From a virus (Duplodnaviria; Heunggongvirae; Uroviricota; Caudoviricetes): a DNA stretch of 13,205 nt. The notes beneath the pieces were generated by a model. The model had not been told where the DNA came from. It made no database searches and saw only the letters and a program-made list of their open reading frames with translations. This document shows, one piece after another, positions 4,335-9,845 of this stretch (positions are counted from its first letter, which is position 1; each line of letters opens with the position of its first letter). Location: the IMG/VR virus record IMGVR_UViG_2671180849_000011; one strand, given 5' to 3'. The translations under genes were made by a program, and so were the position numbers.

Positions 4335-5231
4335 TTATTTAAACTCTAAAATGCCTTTTTTATTTTTTCTAACATTTCTCCACAATATTTCGGGATAATC
4401 TCCGCAGGTTTTATCTAACAATATTTCGAATCCCATCCCAATAAGCTTATTTGCAAAAATAAAAACAGGTCTGGTTAAATGCCAGTATTCTTCCGGTTTC
4501 CAGATTTCACCCTCTATTTTCCCTTTATGTTGGCTTACCTCTTCTGCGGTGTAAAAATCCTCCTGAATCTTTGACAAAAGGATCGGGCGACGTTTGTTTA
4601 AATCTTTGTATTTGCTTTCCCACAGTGATCGCATTATGCCTTTAGCCTCACTCTCACCCAGGACAATCCAGCCCCCATCGGTTACATCTTTCACAGGACG
4701 GCCCCGGCGTGGCTTGTCACTAACAGCGTTAATTTGAGGCGCTTTAGTGTCTTGGGTAGGCAATTGCACCACCTTAGCCTTTTTAGCTTGCTGTGTGGCT
4801 TGTTTTGGGGCTTCTTGCGGGTGTTTCTCTTCACTACCTGCATTGCTCATAGGTTGTATTCCTTGAGCGTCACACATTTTGCAGATTTGAGAAGGAGTAA
4901 TTAACAGTTTGTAATGATTAGATTTGCCTTTACTTTTAATTACTGAAATAAGCCCGGCATTTTCCAGAGTTTTGATAGATTCAATGATTTTTCTATCACT
5001 CACACCACATATTTTTGCTAAGGTCTGCTCTGAGATAAATATTTCTTGCCCGTTTAAATGAAAACCTGCCATTTTTCCATAGATTGTTACCTCTATCAGG
5101 TCTAAATTAAATCGCTCTTTTGTTTTTCCAGTCTTTTTATTAGCAATTGTTGTTGCTACTGGTTTATCAAAAGTATACTGAATGAGGCGTTCGAAATGGG
5201 GATTAAAAACCTCCCCGTAATTACTTGCCAT
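4335..5231 (-). CDS. winged-helix DNA-binding protein (298 aa), replication-initiator-like or antirepressor-like
   Basis: ATG at 5231 preceded by GGGGGA; N-terminal wHTH-like segment ISEQTLAKICGVSDRKIIESIKTLENAGLISV; central P/Q/K/A-rich linker with KPRRGRPVK (AT-hook-like); architecture recalls lambda O-type initiators (from memory, unverified). Confidence 0.5.
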   Translation of the reverse strand: MASNYGEVFNPHFERLIQYTFDKPVATTIANKKTGKTKERFNLDLIEVTIYGKMAGFHLNGQEIFISEQTLAKICGVSDRKIIESIKTLENAGLISVIKSKGKSNHYKLLITPSQICKMCDAQGIQPMSNAGSEEKHPQEAPKQATQQAKKAKVVQLPTQDTKAPQINAVSDKPRRGRPVKDVTDGGWIVLGESEAKGIMRSLWESKYKDLNKRRPILLSKIQEDFYTAEEVSQHKGKIEGEIWKPEEYWHLTRPVFIFANKLIGMGFEILLDKTCGDYPEILWRNVRKNKKGILEFK

Positions 5232-5460: not shown

Positions 5461-5592
5461 GATTCAATCTCCTGTTAGCTCACTAACCTGTGCGATATAT
5501 GGTTAAAAAGAAACGGGAACTTAAGACAAGCCCCCGCATTTTTGTTTAAGGAAATTCACTATGATGAGAATTACCCTATGATTTATATTTTA

Positions 5593-5742
5593 TCAGCTAT
5601 TTGCGAGATTGTCAACAATCTTTTTGTATTTATCTATCATTTTTTCTTCAAGGTTGTCGATTGCAGCTACTCCGGCTATGTAGGCAACACCGCACCACAG
5701 TACAGCCAGGTTGATGATCGCTATAGCGTCGCTCAGTTCCAC
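5593..5742 (-). CDS. small single-pass membrane protein (49 aa, GTG start), not in ORF track
   Basis: GTG 5742 preceded by GGAGG at 5-nt spacing; translation VELSDAIAIINLAVLWCGVAYIAGVAAIDNLEEKMIDKYKKIVDNLANS is one hydrophobic helix plus charged tail; stop TGA 5593-5595. Confidence 0.3.
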   Translation of the reverse strand: MELSDAIAIINLAVLWCGVAYIAGVAAIDNLEEKMIDKYKKIVDNLANS

Positions 5743-5786
5743 GTTGACCTCCGGATCTGTTTCTCCCACTATCTATAATCTTATCA

Positions 5787-5808
5787 TATTGACAACCAAT
5801 TGTCAATA
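5787..5808. promoter_or_regulatory. palindromic operator overlapping candidate leftward promoter
   Basis: Perfect inverted repeat TTGACAA (5789-5795) - CCAA - TTGTCAA (5800-5806), arms extend to 9 bp; on the - strand TTGACA, 17-bp spacer, TAAGAT; a third half-site TTGTCAAT at 5929-5936. Confidence 0.4.
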
Positions 5809-6424
5809 GGAATCATTATCATTTAGGCGAGCTATAGGTACAAACAAGTCCACAGCAAAGGGGTAAGCATTATTAATGGCCCCTACCGTGTCAAAACCAA
5901 AGTCACTTATAGCATTTATGCAATAAGATTGTCAATGGCCCACAAGGGAGGGAGAGCACTTTTTGCCTTAAGCGCTCTAAAATCGATTCTAACGCGATTT
6001 AGAGGTCAGGTAATGCAATTGCACTACTCACACAAGTTAATGCAGCCAGAAGGCCATTTAGGGGCCTTATTTTCGATTTCTGAGCGTCCTGTTACGTGTG
6101 TGCATACACGGGCGCGCGGAATCCCTCGCTTAAACGGTCCGGATTGGAAACAGAAGTCTCTTATCCGGACTCCACATTATATAGCTACGTGCTATCGCAC
6201 TACGCTACCCACACACAGGCCGACGTAGTCGGTTTAGCTGTATAGCTAAAGTCACAGAGTGACCCACACACAGATTGCCTAAAGAGTCGCTAATGCTCTT
6301 TAGGCTTTCATTTGTGGGTTAAGCTTTTCCCTTAGAAAACCTTCCCCACTCTCTGATCCCTCCCCATTCCCCTTGGGGGGTTAGGGGGGGATCTGTTGTG
6401 TGATCTATTAATTTATCTATTAGA

Positions 6425-6645
6425 GTGAGAAATTTTCAGGGGTACTAGTGAGAAATCTTCGGTAGTAGTGGTGAGAAATTCTCAGGGGTGTGGGTAGGTA
6501 TGGTGGTTAAGTAGTGAGAAATCTTCAGTAGTTAGAGGCTGTGTATCATGGGGGCAATGACTGCAAAACGGGAAAGCATGACTGTATAAACACACAGGTG
6601 TGAAAATTCTTCACAGGTTAGCGACACCGGAAAAATCTTCAGTAG
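6425..6645. repeat. iteron-like direct repeats, six copies of about 18 bp (consensus GTGAGAAATCTTCAG(G/T)(G/A)G)
   Basis: Copies at 6425-6442, 6448-6465, 6471-6488 (exact 23-bp phasing), 6514-6531, 6598-6617 (degenerate), 6630-6645; preceded by G-run GGGGGGTTAGGGGGGG 6375-6390. Confidence 0.6.
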
Positions 6646-6655
6646 TGTCTATCTG

Positions 6656-6753
6656 CATATGTGGGAAATACACCCTTATTGACCTATTTTGACTAGCAAA
6701 CCTCTCTCTTCTCTCTTTGCTCTGATTTCCTCTCATGTGTGGGAAATATGCAT
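6656..6753. repeat. second repeat family CAT(A/G)TGTGGGAAATA (two copies) flanking a CT-rich tract
   Basis: catatgtgggaaata at 6656-6670 and catgtgtgggaaata at 6734-6748; pyrimidine-rich tract 6701-6734; a related copy aaaatgtgggatata near 7047-7061. Confidence 0.45.
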
Positions 6754-7488
6754 ACCAACACCCGTTGATTTTATCAATAGCTATGTTGACCGGGCATCAT
6801 AAGTGTGGCCCCTGAGGCAGTCCATCCTTCCCTCACACAGGACAATGAATATATAAAGAACATGAAAGACTGTTCACACCAACACGCCGATAAATTGCCT
6901 GAAGAGGCTTACATGGGGTTATTGTTGTGTGGGTAATGGTGATCATGCTAACAGATTATGTTAATCAGATGTAAATTCCGATTTTGTGGTCTGCATGGAG
7001 CAAACTATACTGGTTAAATGATCAGGGGAATGACTACAAAACAATCAAAAATGTGGGATATAGCCATCTACACGTCTAATGTGCTGTGTGGGGTGTTAGT
7101 GCATGCTTACATGTAAGTCATTGATTTGAAGGGTTGGGAAAATTGCATTTAACATAATAGATCTTATCTACACTAATAAAGCGAACTACAAAATCTGATT
7201 TAAAAATCATGATCAGTGGGCACAGAATTTACGTACAGCCACCTGAATAAATAATGTGCACAACATACAGCAAAGCTTAAGAATTAACATAATAGCAACG
7301 TGGTCAGTAGTGGTGTGATATTTGAGAATTGTTAGAAGAAAAAAGGGAGGTGGGGGAGCGCCTGCCTGGCACCTCAGACGAGTTACCCATAAGCTCAAAT
7401 ACCGCTAATGGATATTTCTGACACCCACACCCAAGACCGCTTTCAGCACATAGCCATATAGCCACACAGGACCGCACAGGATGCAATT

Positions 7489-7698
7489 GTGATAACAAAA
7501 AATGGGGGTGTAATAGGGTAGGTCACCTTTCATCAAAATCACTTCTACGACGTTTCCAGAGTGATAACAAGAAAACAGGCCTCTAAGATTATCTGTGCCT
7601 CGTTTTTAGCTTTTTGTGTGGTTACCAGGTGAAGAGGAAATGTTAAAAACTGTTCATTTTATGCACAAACTAGTCAGGGTGATACCACAAAATGAGGT
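7489..7698. repeat. third repeat family GTGATA(A/C)CA-A-rich-GG, three copies
   Basis: gtgataacaaaaaatggggg 7489-7508, gtgataacaagaaaacagg 7561-7579, gtgataccacaaaatgagg 7679-7697; DnaA-box-like TTATGCACA at 7659-7667. Confidence 0.45.
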
Positions 7699-7887
7699 GT
7701 AAGAAATCCAGCTGCAGATAATCTTGCAGCCAGATTTTGCAGTTTTTTAGGGTATGTTAAATTTGACAAAAATAGAGAAAAGGCTTATTAAGCTAACTTA
7801 TTGATTTTATTAGTATTACGAAAAAGGGTTACACCCTCTCTCTTACTCTGTCAACCGGGCGGTTGTGGCATAAAACGGATTAAATCA

Positions 7888-7946
7888 ATAAATAGGCATT
7901 AAATAGGGGATAAATAGGGGTTAATTGAGGGATAAATAAAAAGGGG
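7888..7946. repeat. five tandem 11-bp phased repeats (A/T)TAAAT(A/T)GGGG
   Basis: Units start at 7888, 7899, 7910, 7921, 7932 (exact 11-bp period); last unit merges into the terminator stem. Confidence 0.55.
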
Positions 7947-7959
7947 CCGTGATGGCCCC
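7931..7959 (-). terminator. rho-independent terminator of the membrane-protein gene
   Basis: Stem GGGGCC (7943-7948) / GGCCCC (7954-7959), loop GTGAT; - strand tail TTTTTATTTATC (complement of 7931-7942); 8 nt past stop codon 7968-7970. Confidence 0.6.
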
Positions 7960-7967
7960 CTGGTAGG

Positions 7968-8498
7968 TCAGAACAGTTTTTTGCTTTTTCTCCAACTAAC
8001 GCCGCGTTTGCCTATGCTCAGCCAGCCGCCAGCGAATCGGGTACCTGCGGTAACACTAGCTCCCCTGGTACCTACATGTGCATAAATACCTGCTCCACTG
8101 CTACCACCGCTTCTACGGCTTTTTCCGCCATCGATATCAAGGAGAACACAGATCGCATTCCACCAAAAGCCGATCACCCATATTGCAAATGCTAAGCCTA
8201 AAACGCCCCAGGTGACCGCCCACCCTTCCAGACTAGTGGGGAAGTAGAAAGCATTGAGAACAGCATTTATAGGGCGGATCAGGAGAAAATCTATAAAACC
8301 AGTATCCACATGAAACGGTCCATTGCCGAACTTGCTACTGCCAATAAATAAGGTAGCAGGGTAAAAGAAGATAGCCATTGCCCAAGGGCCAATAAGCAGG
8401 ATAGTAGCCCCGAACTGTGCGGCCTCCTTAAAGAACATTTTTACTATTGCTTTAAAAAGCTTTTTGTTTTCTGATTCTTTATCTTTCTGAAATAACAT
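7968..8498 (-). CDS. polytopic membrane protein (176 aa) with Gly/Ser/Arg-rich C-terminal tail
   Basis: ATG 8498 preceded by AAGGGG; about four hydrophobic segments; own terminator; position and type fit a superinfection-exclusion or abortive-infection moron (inference). Confidence 0.6.
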   Translation of the reverse strand: MLFQKDKESENKKLFKAIVKMFFKEAAQFGATILLIGPWAMAIFFYPATLFIGSSKFGNGPFHVDTGFIDFLLIRPINAVLNAFYFPTSLEGWAVTWGVLGLAFAIWVIGFWWNAICVLLDIDGGKSRRSGGSSGAGIYAHVGTRGASVTAGTRFAGGWLSIGKRGVSWRKSKKLF

Positions 8499-8509
8499 GA
8501 CGGTACCCC

Positions 8510-8555: not shown

Positions 8556-8816
8556 CTATTTATTCTTCTTAAATCTCCCATCCTCCTTTCTCTCGATATT
8601 GTGGTAGTCGGCATAGGCTTTCAGCCTTCTGTGCACGGTGGCGATCCCCACACCGAAGGTTTTAGCGATAACCTGTCGTGGTGTTCCCTCTTCAACCATC
8701 TTGTACATCTGTTCCGCTACATCCATTTGTGCGGCTATCTCCATTTGCTTTGCCTTAGCTTTAATTTCAGCTATCAGCTCTTCCCTCAGTCTCCTGATAT
8801 CTTTAGCCCCCGTCAT
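8556..8816 (-). CDS. small HTH DNA-binding regulator (86 aa)
   Basis: SD GAGGAG 3 nt before ATG 8816; N-terminal predicted coiled coil; C-terminal HTH TPRQVIAKTFGVGIATVHRRLK of the resolvase/Mor-like type (by eye). Confidence 0.6.
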   Translation of the reverse strand: MTGAKDIRRLREELIAEIKAKAKQMEIAAQMDVAEQMYKMVEEGTPRQVIAKTFGVGIATVHRRLKAYADYHNIERKEDGRFKKNK

Positions 8817-9069: not shown

Positions 9070-9336
9070 GTTTGTTCGGTTGGGGTGCTATCAATGATCC
9101 CCTTCCTTGATTCGAACTATAGCCGGGTAAATCACTGGAAAACATTGATATTGATCAAAAGATATCTATCACGAATGAAAAAGTTATGATAGATGATAGG
9201 AGTCGCATAGCTGCGACCTTGGCTGTGTGCCAAGCCTGCAAAGCAGGTCAGGGATGAGGTGACGTATTGATGGGATTGATAGAGGTCTGAAAATACCGTT
9301 ACCACGCTAATTATTAGAATTTATATAATCAGGATG

Positions 9337-9365
9337 TTGACAATGTGAGTAAATACTGATATAAT
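9337..9365 (+). promoter_or_regulatory. perfect-consensus sigma70 promoter (TTGACA - 17 bp - TATAAT) with AT-rich upstream region
   Basis: TTGACA 9337-9342, exactly 17-bp spacer, TATAAT 9360-9365; AT-rich 9305-9335 (UP-element-like); faces the capsid genes. Confidence 0.65.
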
Positions 9366-9373
9366 ATACAGTA
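9354..9373. promoter_or_regulatory. LexA-type SOS box overlapping the -10 element
   Basis: TACTGATATAATATACAGTA matches the E. coli-type consensus TACTG(TA)5CAGTA at all ten flanking positions with an AT-only core. Confidence 0.45.
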
Positions 9374-9508
9374 TACCGTGAATCATTTAGCGAAGGTGGT
9401 TTACCGTATTTTCCTCCAAAGTAACGGCGACCAGGTAGCGGTGCCGCCTTATAAATAACACTACCCTGATCATCGTTGAGTGGTCGATTAATTCTCCTAT
9501 TGGGCTAG

Positions 9509-9517
9509 TTATCCACA
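9509..9517 (+). promoter_or_regulatory. consensus DnaA box TTATCCACA inside the capsid-operon leader
   Basis: Exact 9-mer; also the 5' arm of an inverted repeat CCACACAG (9513-9520) / CTGTGTGG (9539-9546). Confidence 0.3.
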
Positions 9518-9845
9518 CAGTTTTCTTTTGCGGGTTTTCTGTGTGGGTAGCTATCCCGAAAGGTATTTCCCCGCTGATGTGACCGCAGCCTGAACTGATT
9601 CGGGGGAGTGCCTTTCGTGATAGTGCTCTCTAGCAACCGTAACCATGCAGTGAACTATCAGCCAACTGTTGTTGGTTTTCCCCATATGGAATAGCCCCCG
9701 CTTGGACGGTGCGGGGCTATCTCCCTCTCCTTATATCAATCCCCCTTTAGATTTCCGGCATAACTTTTCGGCCCGAGCCTGTCGTGGTTTGAGAGGTTAT
9801 ACCTGAACCCTTTGAGGGGAGTTAATTTAAATCGCAGGTGATCAA

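Follow-up and report, generated by a model that had tools for sequence, protein, structure and literature searches.

A candidate iteron-type replication origin and its putative winged-helix initiator in a 13-kb phage-like plasmid family of Escherichia coli

The stretch of DNA analysed here in full (IMG/VR record IMGVR_UViG_2671180849_000011; hereafter the window) is a complete, plasmid-like element of 13,205 bp from an Escherichia assembly. Comparison with related elements indicates that positions 6358 to 6532 very probably form the vegetative origin of this ~13-kb circular plasmid-like element, with a 298-amino-acid (298-aa) winged-helix protein (Rep, encoded at 4335-5231) as the initiator. 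An earlier note, made from the letters of the sequence, had proposed an iteron-type origin in a group of direct repeats at 6425-6645. That interpretation is supported, on comparative grounds, by the family to which Rep belongs, the conserved layout of the region, the covariation of the repeats with the predicted recognition helix of Rep, and an order of parts resembling that of the phage lambda origin. Both complete E. coli genomes and PLSDB contain close relatives (~93% identity), which are annotated there as circular, non-mobilizable plasmids with sizes of 13.2-13.7 kb. The element should need a replicon of its own, because these relatives are circular plasmids and the 13 kb yielded neither another initiator candidate in Rfam, Pfam, PHROG and NCBIfam scans nor an RNA-primed origin family (Rfam scan of the whole window at E ≤ 1, with nothing in 5800-8000). 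As a type of origin it would be conventional, and systems of this kind are known; neither the element nor its replicon seems to have been described before.

The repeat array and its flanks

Six occurrences of an 18-bp consensus had been counted in the earlier note. The window was searched with the 18-mer GTGAGAAATCTTCAGKRG, allowing up to 3 mismatches, against a background of dinucleotide shuffles (n = 200). Five sites were found, all on the + strand and all inside 6425-6645, with 1, 1, 2, 0 and 3 mismatches at 6425, 6448, 6471, 6514 and 6628, respectively. The shuffles gave an expectation of 0.01 sites, and none of the 200 reached five. A separate repeat finder returned the same five copies, at spacings of 23, 23, 43 and 114 bp. 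The sixth, at 6601 (GTGAAAATTCTTCACAGG), has 4 mismatches to the 18-mer (counted by eye from the sequence). The repeat family is therefore real, as is the exact 23-bp phasing of the first three copies, to which a fourth is added at +43 bp. The count of six has to be revised to four cognate copies and two divergent copies of other classes, and only the copy at 6514 fits the original consensus exactly. The full repeat unit is ~19 bp long and consists of a 15-bp, partly dyad-symmetric core with a GGGT or TAGT tail. The parts of the proposed replicon are as follows.

4335-5231, - strand: rep, encoding the 298-aa candidate initiator (N-terminal winged helix, disordered linker and C-terminal domain)
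6358-6390: GC-rich imperfect inverted repeat, CCCTCCCCATTCCCCTTGGGGGGTTAGGGGGGG; its stem was flagged by a terminator scan
6391-6423: AT-rich block, candidate DNA-unwinding element, 73-77% A+T, ending in TTTATCTATTAG
6425-6443, + strand: cognate iteron 1, GTGAGAAATTTTCAGGGGT
6448-6466, + strand: cognate iteron 2, GTGAGAAATCTTCGGTAGT, at +23 bp
6471-6489, + strand: cognate iteron 3, GTGAGAAATTCTCAGGGGT, at +23 bp
6514-6532, + strand: cognate iteron 4, GTGAGAAATCTTCAGTAGT, at +43 bp, a step kept in all repeat types
6601-6619, + strand: orphan iteron-like site of class 'F', GTGAAAATTCTTCACAGGT, within a TGTGAA/TTCACA dyad
6628-6646, + strand: orphan iteron-like site, CGGAAAAATCTTCAGTAGT, with 2 mismatches to the type A' repeat CGGAGAAATCTTCCG and 3 to the cognate type A

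Four-repeat arrays are present in the relatives that carry this Rep family. A comparison of more than 30 loci showed the same layout in every one of these relatives: the GC-rich inverted repeat, an AT-rich block of ~32 bp, and four repeats spaced by 23, 23 and 43-44 bp. The inverted repeat borders the AT-rich block at the end opposite the iterons; it is present in all relatives other than those of type D (described below) and is conserved at 0.89-0.96 in a profile of 24 loci. In the same profile the origin flanks are ~90-96% conserved and the repeat block, at 0.45-0.68, is the least conserved non-coding segment, because the repeat sequence comes in discrete types. The AT-rich block contains two GATC sites (6390 and 6402, 12 bp apart in the window) and three ATCT(A/G)TT motifs ~11-12 bp apart. 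When the 13.2 kb was ranked by stability in 32-bp windows, the block fell among the six least stable, and in the top 0.3% for the non-coding region. Cumulative GC skew reaches a minimum near 6400, which agrees weakly with an origin at this position. No convincing IHF sites were found near the repeats, and the window contains no recognisable transfer RNA genes.

Two small open reading frames (ORFs) and a distance of ~1.2 kb separate the rep start from the array, which lies upstream of the gene in non-coding DNA. The ~2.2-kb stretch that holds it (5800-7968) is without an annotated gene in any relative.

Rep and the covariation of its recognition helix with the repeats

Rep passes the Pfam HTH_36 threshold (PF13730; 31.7 bits against a cut-off of 25, residues 47-95). 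Its six best PHROG matches are annotated as replication initiation, DnaD-like helicase loader and replication initiation O-like (E 1e-9 to 7e-6), the O-like families aligning over the winged helix-turn-helix (wHTH) region (E 1e-7 to 1e-4). A Pfam scan at E ≤ 0.1 returned no Phage_rep_O, Rep_3 (PF01051) or RepA_N (PF06970) domain. The protein comprises an N-terminal domain (residues ~10-125), within which residues 79-91 (DRKIIESIKTLEN) form the predicted recognition helix, and a C-terminal domain (residues ~190-298). An AlphaFold model built with 28 homologues places helices at 45-58, 68-75 and 79-91 and a beta wing at 95-109, with a predicted local distance difference test (pLDDT) score of 80-90 for the N-domain, followed by a disordered linker (130-188) and the second domain. 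In a Foldseek search of the PDB, the best match was the N-domain of a staphylococcal RepA_N initiator (4PQL/4PT7; E~6e-3, TM-score 0.44-0.46).

Comparison of the relatives revealed Rep to be modular. A variable N-domain and a C-domain are separated by an invariant linker motif, PQEAPKQ (PQEAPKQ(A/P)(T/A)QQ in full, residues ~138-148), which divides at least eight N-domain types from at least three C-domain types. The latter end in ...GILEFK, ...ELTITK or ...MVLLDK, with an additional tail, ...DSAIPY, in type D. C-domain types combine freely with N-domains, and the same N-type was seen with two or three C-types. Judged from these alignments, the PQEAPKQ linker looks like a recombination joint. 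The proteins encoded downstream of rep (48, 161, 147 and 127 aa) showed no significant Pfam, PHROG or NCBIfam family, although a helicase loader of a novel kind might be among them. No homologue of Rep was found among GenBank phages, a homology search of IMG/VR and GTDB genomes gave no confirmed relatives, and a pattern search of IMG/VR with the conserved anchor of the region gave no match.

The cognate repeat sequence occurs in at least seven types across the family, each composed of a 15-bp core followed by GGGT, AGGT or TAGT. In all types the core is partly to perfectly dyad-symmetric.

Type A (the window): GTGAGAAATCTTCAG
Type A': CGGAGAAATCTTCCG
Type B: GTGGGAAATTCCAACAGGT
Type B2: GGGAAATTCCCGCATAT
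Type C: CGG(T/A)AAT(A/T)TTTACCG
Type C': GT(C/A)AAATATTTT(T/G)AC
Type E: CGGTAAATTTTACCG

Repeat type was then compared with other features of each locus using the adjusted Rand index (ARI). At 22 loci of six types, a 15-residue segment covering the recognition helix gave an ARI of 1.00. Neither segment of the intervening DNA followed repeat type (ARI 0.03 for the 300 bp adjoining rep and -0.03 for the 300 bp on the left of the origin), nor did the Rep C-domain (0.26) or the 86-aa helix-turn-helix (HTH_7) protein (0.00), which the earlier note had named as an alternative binder. At 30 loci and seven types the helix still determined the repeat type completely; the drop of its ARI to 0.73 is due solely to one repeat type being shared by two helix variants, and the C-domain and the intervening DNA gave 0.13 and 0.09. 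Simple linkage cannot explain the match, since the DNA between the two recombines freely while helix and repeats stay paired. A Mantel rank correlation of pairwise identities was only moderate (rho 0.45 for the N-domain), because specificity is categorical, and the class-based analysis was used instead. The other suggestion of the earlier note, that the 298-aa protein is the nearest candidate binder, is favoured by the protein family, the layout, the covariation of the helix and the comparison with lambda.

The most informative pair is formed by the window and the relative L028. Their Rep proteins differ at 8 of 298 residues, three of which lie in helix 79-91 (I83R, E84D and T88S), and their repeats differ by a symmetric change at the outer dyad positions, TGA...TCA to CGGA...TCCG (GTGAGAAATCTTCAG against CGGAGAAATCTTCCG). 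Arginine at helix position 83 accompanies CGG...CCG in three types (A', C and E), and isoleucine, valine or alanine at this position accompanies GTG/GTN. Furthermore, B-type elements have unchanged repeats with either C-domain and with either wing variant. The repeats of four unsampled Rep helix variants were predicted before inspection. Two predictions were borne out (an A' helix with A' repeats and an E-like helix with E repeats). A third was partly so: a B helix with a V-to-A substitution and a new wing keeps the GGGAAATTCC core with a new 3' flank. The fourth is taken up below. Two metagenome loci, found independently through the conserved anchor, also fit the mapping of helix to repeat.

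Four loci appeared to be exceptions, in that an unrelated, MarR-like Rep N-domain (types D and D') stands beside C- or E-type arrays. These counter-examples were resolved when the loci were found to carry repeats of their own in an insert of ~500 bp on the left side of the GC repeat. In type D these are three TATATCAnnTTGATATGTTGATA units of ~30 bp, at spacings of 33 and 44 bp; in type D', which has a different helix, they are three GATGTGCTGCTATCGCACAC units.

Type D/D' triple repeats: L008, 13012-13118; L023, 4753-4858; L029, 11939-12063; L026, ~140-190 bp upstream of the anchor

Two of the type D loci, L023 and L029, are without the whole module of GC repeat, AT-rich block and four repeats. 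Such a pattern would be expected if each Rep N-domain travels with its own origin.

The two divergent copies in the window belong to a wider phenomenon. When each locus was scanned with the seven type consensus sequences, 4-5 cognate copies were found together with single copies of foreign types, all in the same orientation, where shuffles lead one to expect 0.08. Sites of the 6601 and 6628 classes are found again at the corresponding position in relatives whose cognate repeats differ; no cognate Rep for class 'F' (the 6601 site) was found in the loci sampled. Orphan sites also lie downstream of the primary array in L004, L006 and others, and in the type D locus L023 four foreign classes are represented by six sites packed closely in tandem (4886-5028). 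Four of the five B-type elements sampled have no foreign orphan site. In some relatives, ORFs resembling the N-domain of Rep alone, and of a different specificity type, lie just upstream of the full rep (L015, 3603-3989, and L028, 932-1318, both 128 aa; L014, 6802-7320, 172 aa), as do ORFs of 165-166 aa in L038, L039, L042 and L043. These are possibly leftovers of module replacement or blockers acting in trans. Conceivably, orphan sites and N-domain-only paralogues together make up a system of competition between elements and are not scars of recombination, an idea we consider rather unlikely. Decoy sites and truncated binders would then titrate or block the initiators and origins of rival elements with other specificity types, or alternatively would protect against helper-phage factors that mimic Rep. 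If this were true, competition between elements would drive the diversification into at least seven Rep/iteron types.

A mechanism consistent with these results may be proposed for the candidate origin. The N-terminal winged-helix domain of Rep would bind each of the four ~19-bp iterons. The partly dyad-symmetric 15-bp core of every iteron makes binding as a dimer probable, and the outer base triplets would be read by the first residues of helix 79-91. The resulting multi-Rep complex would strain and open the adjacent 32-bp AT-rich block, on the far side of which lies the GC inverted repeat. Through the disordered linker, the C-terminal domain would recruit a helicase or a loader, neither of which the element itself appears to encode. 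Diversification into at least seven matched initiator/iteron types may let related elements avoid sharing one replication specificity or, alternatively, avoid being targeted through one.

Competing explanations for the array

Several observations weigh against assigning 6358-6532 as the origin. There is no perfect DnaA box (TTWTNCACA, 0 mismatches) in 5500-7658, the nearest being at 7659, 8077 and 9509. No further cognate-type site with up to 3 mismatches was found anywhere in the window, including the vicinity of the rep promoter, where autoregulation would place one. Two adjacent GATCTnTTnTTTT-like 13-mers occur in the AT-rich block, at 6390 and 6402, and had been considered as oriC-type support; this was dropped, and they are not used as evidence because they are not enriched window-wide (8 matches against 7.3 expected). 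BLASTP of Rep against lambda O gave E=1.4, that is, no pairwise similarity. No helicase-loader gene was recognised in Pfam, PHROG and NCBIfam scans. The fold and sequence matches of Rep in the PDB are weak and consist mostly of wHTH repressors (CodY, MarR and ArsR). The fourth prediction failed: helix type G (SRPTIIKAIKSLVN) is accompanied by the repeats of C' (SRPTVINSIKSLEN). The rule that each new helix sequence brings a new repeat type is thereby ruled out; helix types G and C' have their first six residues in common, and since type G shares the C' repeats, the whole helix sequence over-splits specificity. The 30 loci are, moreover, related to one another and many of their arrays are near-identical, and the independent associations come nearer to ~10-15 (types and recombinant contexts) than to 30. 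Finally, dyad-symmetric sites of 15-19 bp at a spacing of ~23 bp with an HTH-type binder are also the layout of a lambdoid operator.

This last point leads to the most serious alternative, that the array is a set of operators and the 298-aa protein mainly a transcriptional repressor, serving immunity or autoregulation in the manner of lambdoid OR/OL, with the repeat types as immunity specificities. Lambdoid operators consist of dyad-symmetric sites at ~23-bp spacing, the repressors among the PDB matches point the same way, and the N-domain-only paralogues of some relatives could act only as DNA binders. However, no sigma-70-like promoter was predicted in or beside 6420-6650. To the left, the nearest gene start is ~680 bp away (a 49-aa ORF ending at 5742); to the right, the nearest gene is convergent and 1.3 kb away, and no plausible small ORF follows the array. 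Additionally, all copies run in the same direction and abut a conserved AT-rich block and GC clamp, the best PHROG matches of Rep are initiators and loaders, and the element would be left without a replicon. We regard the operator explanation as improbable.

It is highly improbable that the array is a centromere-like partition site with the winged-helix protein as its TubR/ParR-type binder. Type III (TubR/tubC) partition sites are short direct-repeat arrays bound by small wHTH proteins, and TubR is among the weak PDB matches of Rep (4aso, E 0.1; 3m8f). Profile scans of the element's proteins, however, revealed no ParA, ParM or TubZ-type nucleoside triphosphatase. Rep has a second domain of ~110 aa and matches initiator families, and neither the adjacent AT-rich block nor the GC inverted repeat would have a role in partition.

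Binding of the repeats by another protein, either the HTH_7 protein (8556-8816) or a helper-phage factor, in packaging (a pac site) or in helper-dependent regulation, is likewise very unlikely. The element is satellite-like in having capsid and tail genes without terminase or portal; with such a gene content a packaging signal must sit somewhere in its non-coding DNA, and the HTH_7 protein is a plausible DNA binder. Yet the variants of this protein show no association with repeat type, which tracks the Rep helix exactly, and a site for a helper terminase would be expected to be conserved, whereas the iterons are the most variable non-coding segment. Lastly, the repeats are hardly likely to be non-functional remnants of slippage or recombination in a fast-evolving region: the region is mosaic, and single orphan copies of several classes could be recombination scars, but across seven types the cognate copies keep their number (4), spacing (23/23/43), orientation and position. 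Within any one element they are also homogenised, and they correspond to the Rep helix; drift would not bring this about.

The origin reading can also be set beside known systems, the nearest of which include the lambda origin with its O initiator and the type-specific O/ori pairs of lambdoid phages. The earlier note had likened the array to lambda-type origins, and the likeness holds for the architecture. In the annotated lambda origin, four 18-bp dyad-symmetric iterons start 20, 24 and 23 bp apart and are followed by an A+T-rich stretch and then by an imperfect palindrome. The candidate origin has the same order of parts, with four dyad-symmetric sites of 18-19 bp for a putative initiator, an adjoining AT-rich region and an inverted repeat beyond. 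Lambda O binds its inverted-repeat iterons in the form of dimers, which open the AT-rich region alongside (PMC5043065). Like O, Rep would be a two-domain initiator with an N-terminal DNA-binding domain and a flexible linker, and it has O-like PHROG matches. The likeness does not extend to homology with O, given the absence of a Phage_rep_O match and of pairwise similarity, nor to the position of the origin, which lies inside the initiator gene in lambda and 1.2 kb outside it here. In further contrast to lambda, no P-like loader gene was recognised, an extra gap of 20 bp precedes the fourth iteron (the 43-bp step), the AT-rich block has GATC sites and is without lambda's purine strand bias, and orphan sites of other specificities lie downstream.

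A second parallel is provided by the PLE satellites of phage ICP1 in Vibrio cholerae, in which the N-domain of RepA and the iterons swap together while the C-domain is shuffled, swaps thought to be driven by a phage nuclease that mimics RepA (PMC8263062). In both cases the replicon of a phage satellite, as proposed here, would consist of an initiator and an intergenic iteron origin, the N-domain covaries with the iterons, and the C-domain is reassorted on its own; among PDB folds, RepA_N N-domains match Rep best, though weakly. The present element exists as a free plasmid; PLE, by contrast, is integrated, and it replicates only when the helper infects. PLE has three semi-palindromic iterons of ~30 bp in two specificity groups, as against four of ~19 bp in at least seven groups, and Rep has no RepA_N match in Pfam. 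We know of no phage nuclease that targets the origin of this element.

Like iteron-controlled theta plasmids of E. coli (pSC101, F, P1, R6K and RK2), the present plasmid has tandem putative initiator sites in one orientation, here beside an AT-rich block that may serve for unwinding. In P1 (incA), additional iterons exist beyond the minimal origin; the orphan sites may be an analogue of these. By contrast with the dyad-symmetric iterons of the present element, those of plasmids are mostly plain direct repeats bound by monomers (PMC5043065). The marks of Rep_3 iteron plasmids are likewise missing: the searches revealed neither a Rep_3 domain nor a DnaA box within or next to the array, and no inverted or partial iterons at the rep promoter.

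On this reading the result defines the replicon (origin and initiator) of a small phage-like plasmid family present in thousands of E. coli assemblies and not typed by the standard replicon scheme in the records examined. Within the family, at least seven initiator/iteron specificities occur as matched sets on a backbone that is otherwise ~93% identical; one pair is set apart in the recognition helix by three residues, with a symmetric base change in the repeats. Such a natural series could serve to work out a winged-helix recognition code and to build mini-replicons that are compatible with one another. It could also be used to ask whether satellite replicons diversify under incompatibility or under phage antagonism, as proposed for PLE. 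Its value lies in a clean natural record of a protein and its DNA site changing specificity together, and in the element family itself, not in a new mechanism.

The element family and its other non-coding features

The element encodes tape-measure, major capsid, Dit-like baseplate and tail-completion/Neck1-like proteins; no terminase, portal or integrase was recognised among its proteins in PHROG and profile scans, and the PADLOC defence-system models gave nothing significant. The capsid and tape-measure proteins have only distant relatives among GenBank phages (24-26% identity), all of them rV5-like virulent myophages, and no GenBank phage matched the DNA of the window or of its conserved non-coding block. 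No description of the family was found in the literature searched. The element looks like an undescribed plasmid-borne phage satellite. Two of its small proteins were found with identical sequence in ~1,800 and ~2,600 blocks of a contig collection, overwhelmingly on contigs of 10-20 kb, and the element is therefore common. The plasmid records of the relatives give no replicon type, and one record of 39.6 kb is a direct trimer. Several records seemed to share a start base, which suggested a linear plasmid; this was discarded, as the records are annotated circular and their start points differ.

To the left of the candidate origin, a conserved terminator-like hairpin lies on the + strand at 6277-6305 (GCCTAAAGAG...CTCTTTAGGC followed by TTTCATTT), with no annotated + strand gene upstream. 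It could be the end of an unannotated rightward transcript, for example one antisense to the leader of the rep operon. To the right, a block of 1.1 kb without an annotated gene (6690-7780) is conserved like coding genes (0.91-1.00 per 25-nt bin, 24 loci); it had no match in phages or E. coli chromosomes and contains no convincing small ORF. A packaging signal or a helper-responsive control region are possibilities for it. The idea of a large structured RNA in 6650-7969 was rejected: folding z-scores on either strand stayed near 0, the exceptions being a few local hairpins of the - strand (6875-7024 and 7625-7924).

Other short repeats were noted in the non-coding region. AAATAGG(G/C) occurs three times at an exact 11-bp spacing (7888-7932), just before the terminator of the 176-aa gene, and is also found in L003, L010 and L023. 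A GTGATAACAA-like repeat is present three times (7489, 7562 and 7679), CATATGTGGGAAATA, which resembles half of a B-type iteron, two to three times (6656, 6734 and 7048), and ACCCACACACAG twice (6207 and 6262). A second conserved non-coding stretch (9146-9845; 0.81-0.99) separates the leftward HTH_7 operon from the rightward capsid operon and is presumably a divergent promoter and control region. The sole perfect match of the window to the DnaA-box consensus TTATCCACA lies in this stretch (9509), where cumulative GC skew also has a second local minimum.

Two hot spots of variability, where only 25-55% of loci align, were found at 401-1000, the part of the tape-measure gene for the C-terminal third, and at 8001-8500, in the gene for the 176-aa predicted membrane protein (7968-8498). 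Some copies of the element occur within larger contigs. In L011/L021 it lies beside a Tn3-family transposase and a beta-lactamase on a 79-kb contig with microcin-B17-like genes, and in L012/L024 it is inside a 94-kb IncFII-type contig. In L013, where rep is separated from the origin array, it stands beside a DDE transposase and a beta-lactamase on a 353-kb contig, and in L023 it neighbours aminoglycoside phosphotransferase genes.

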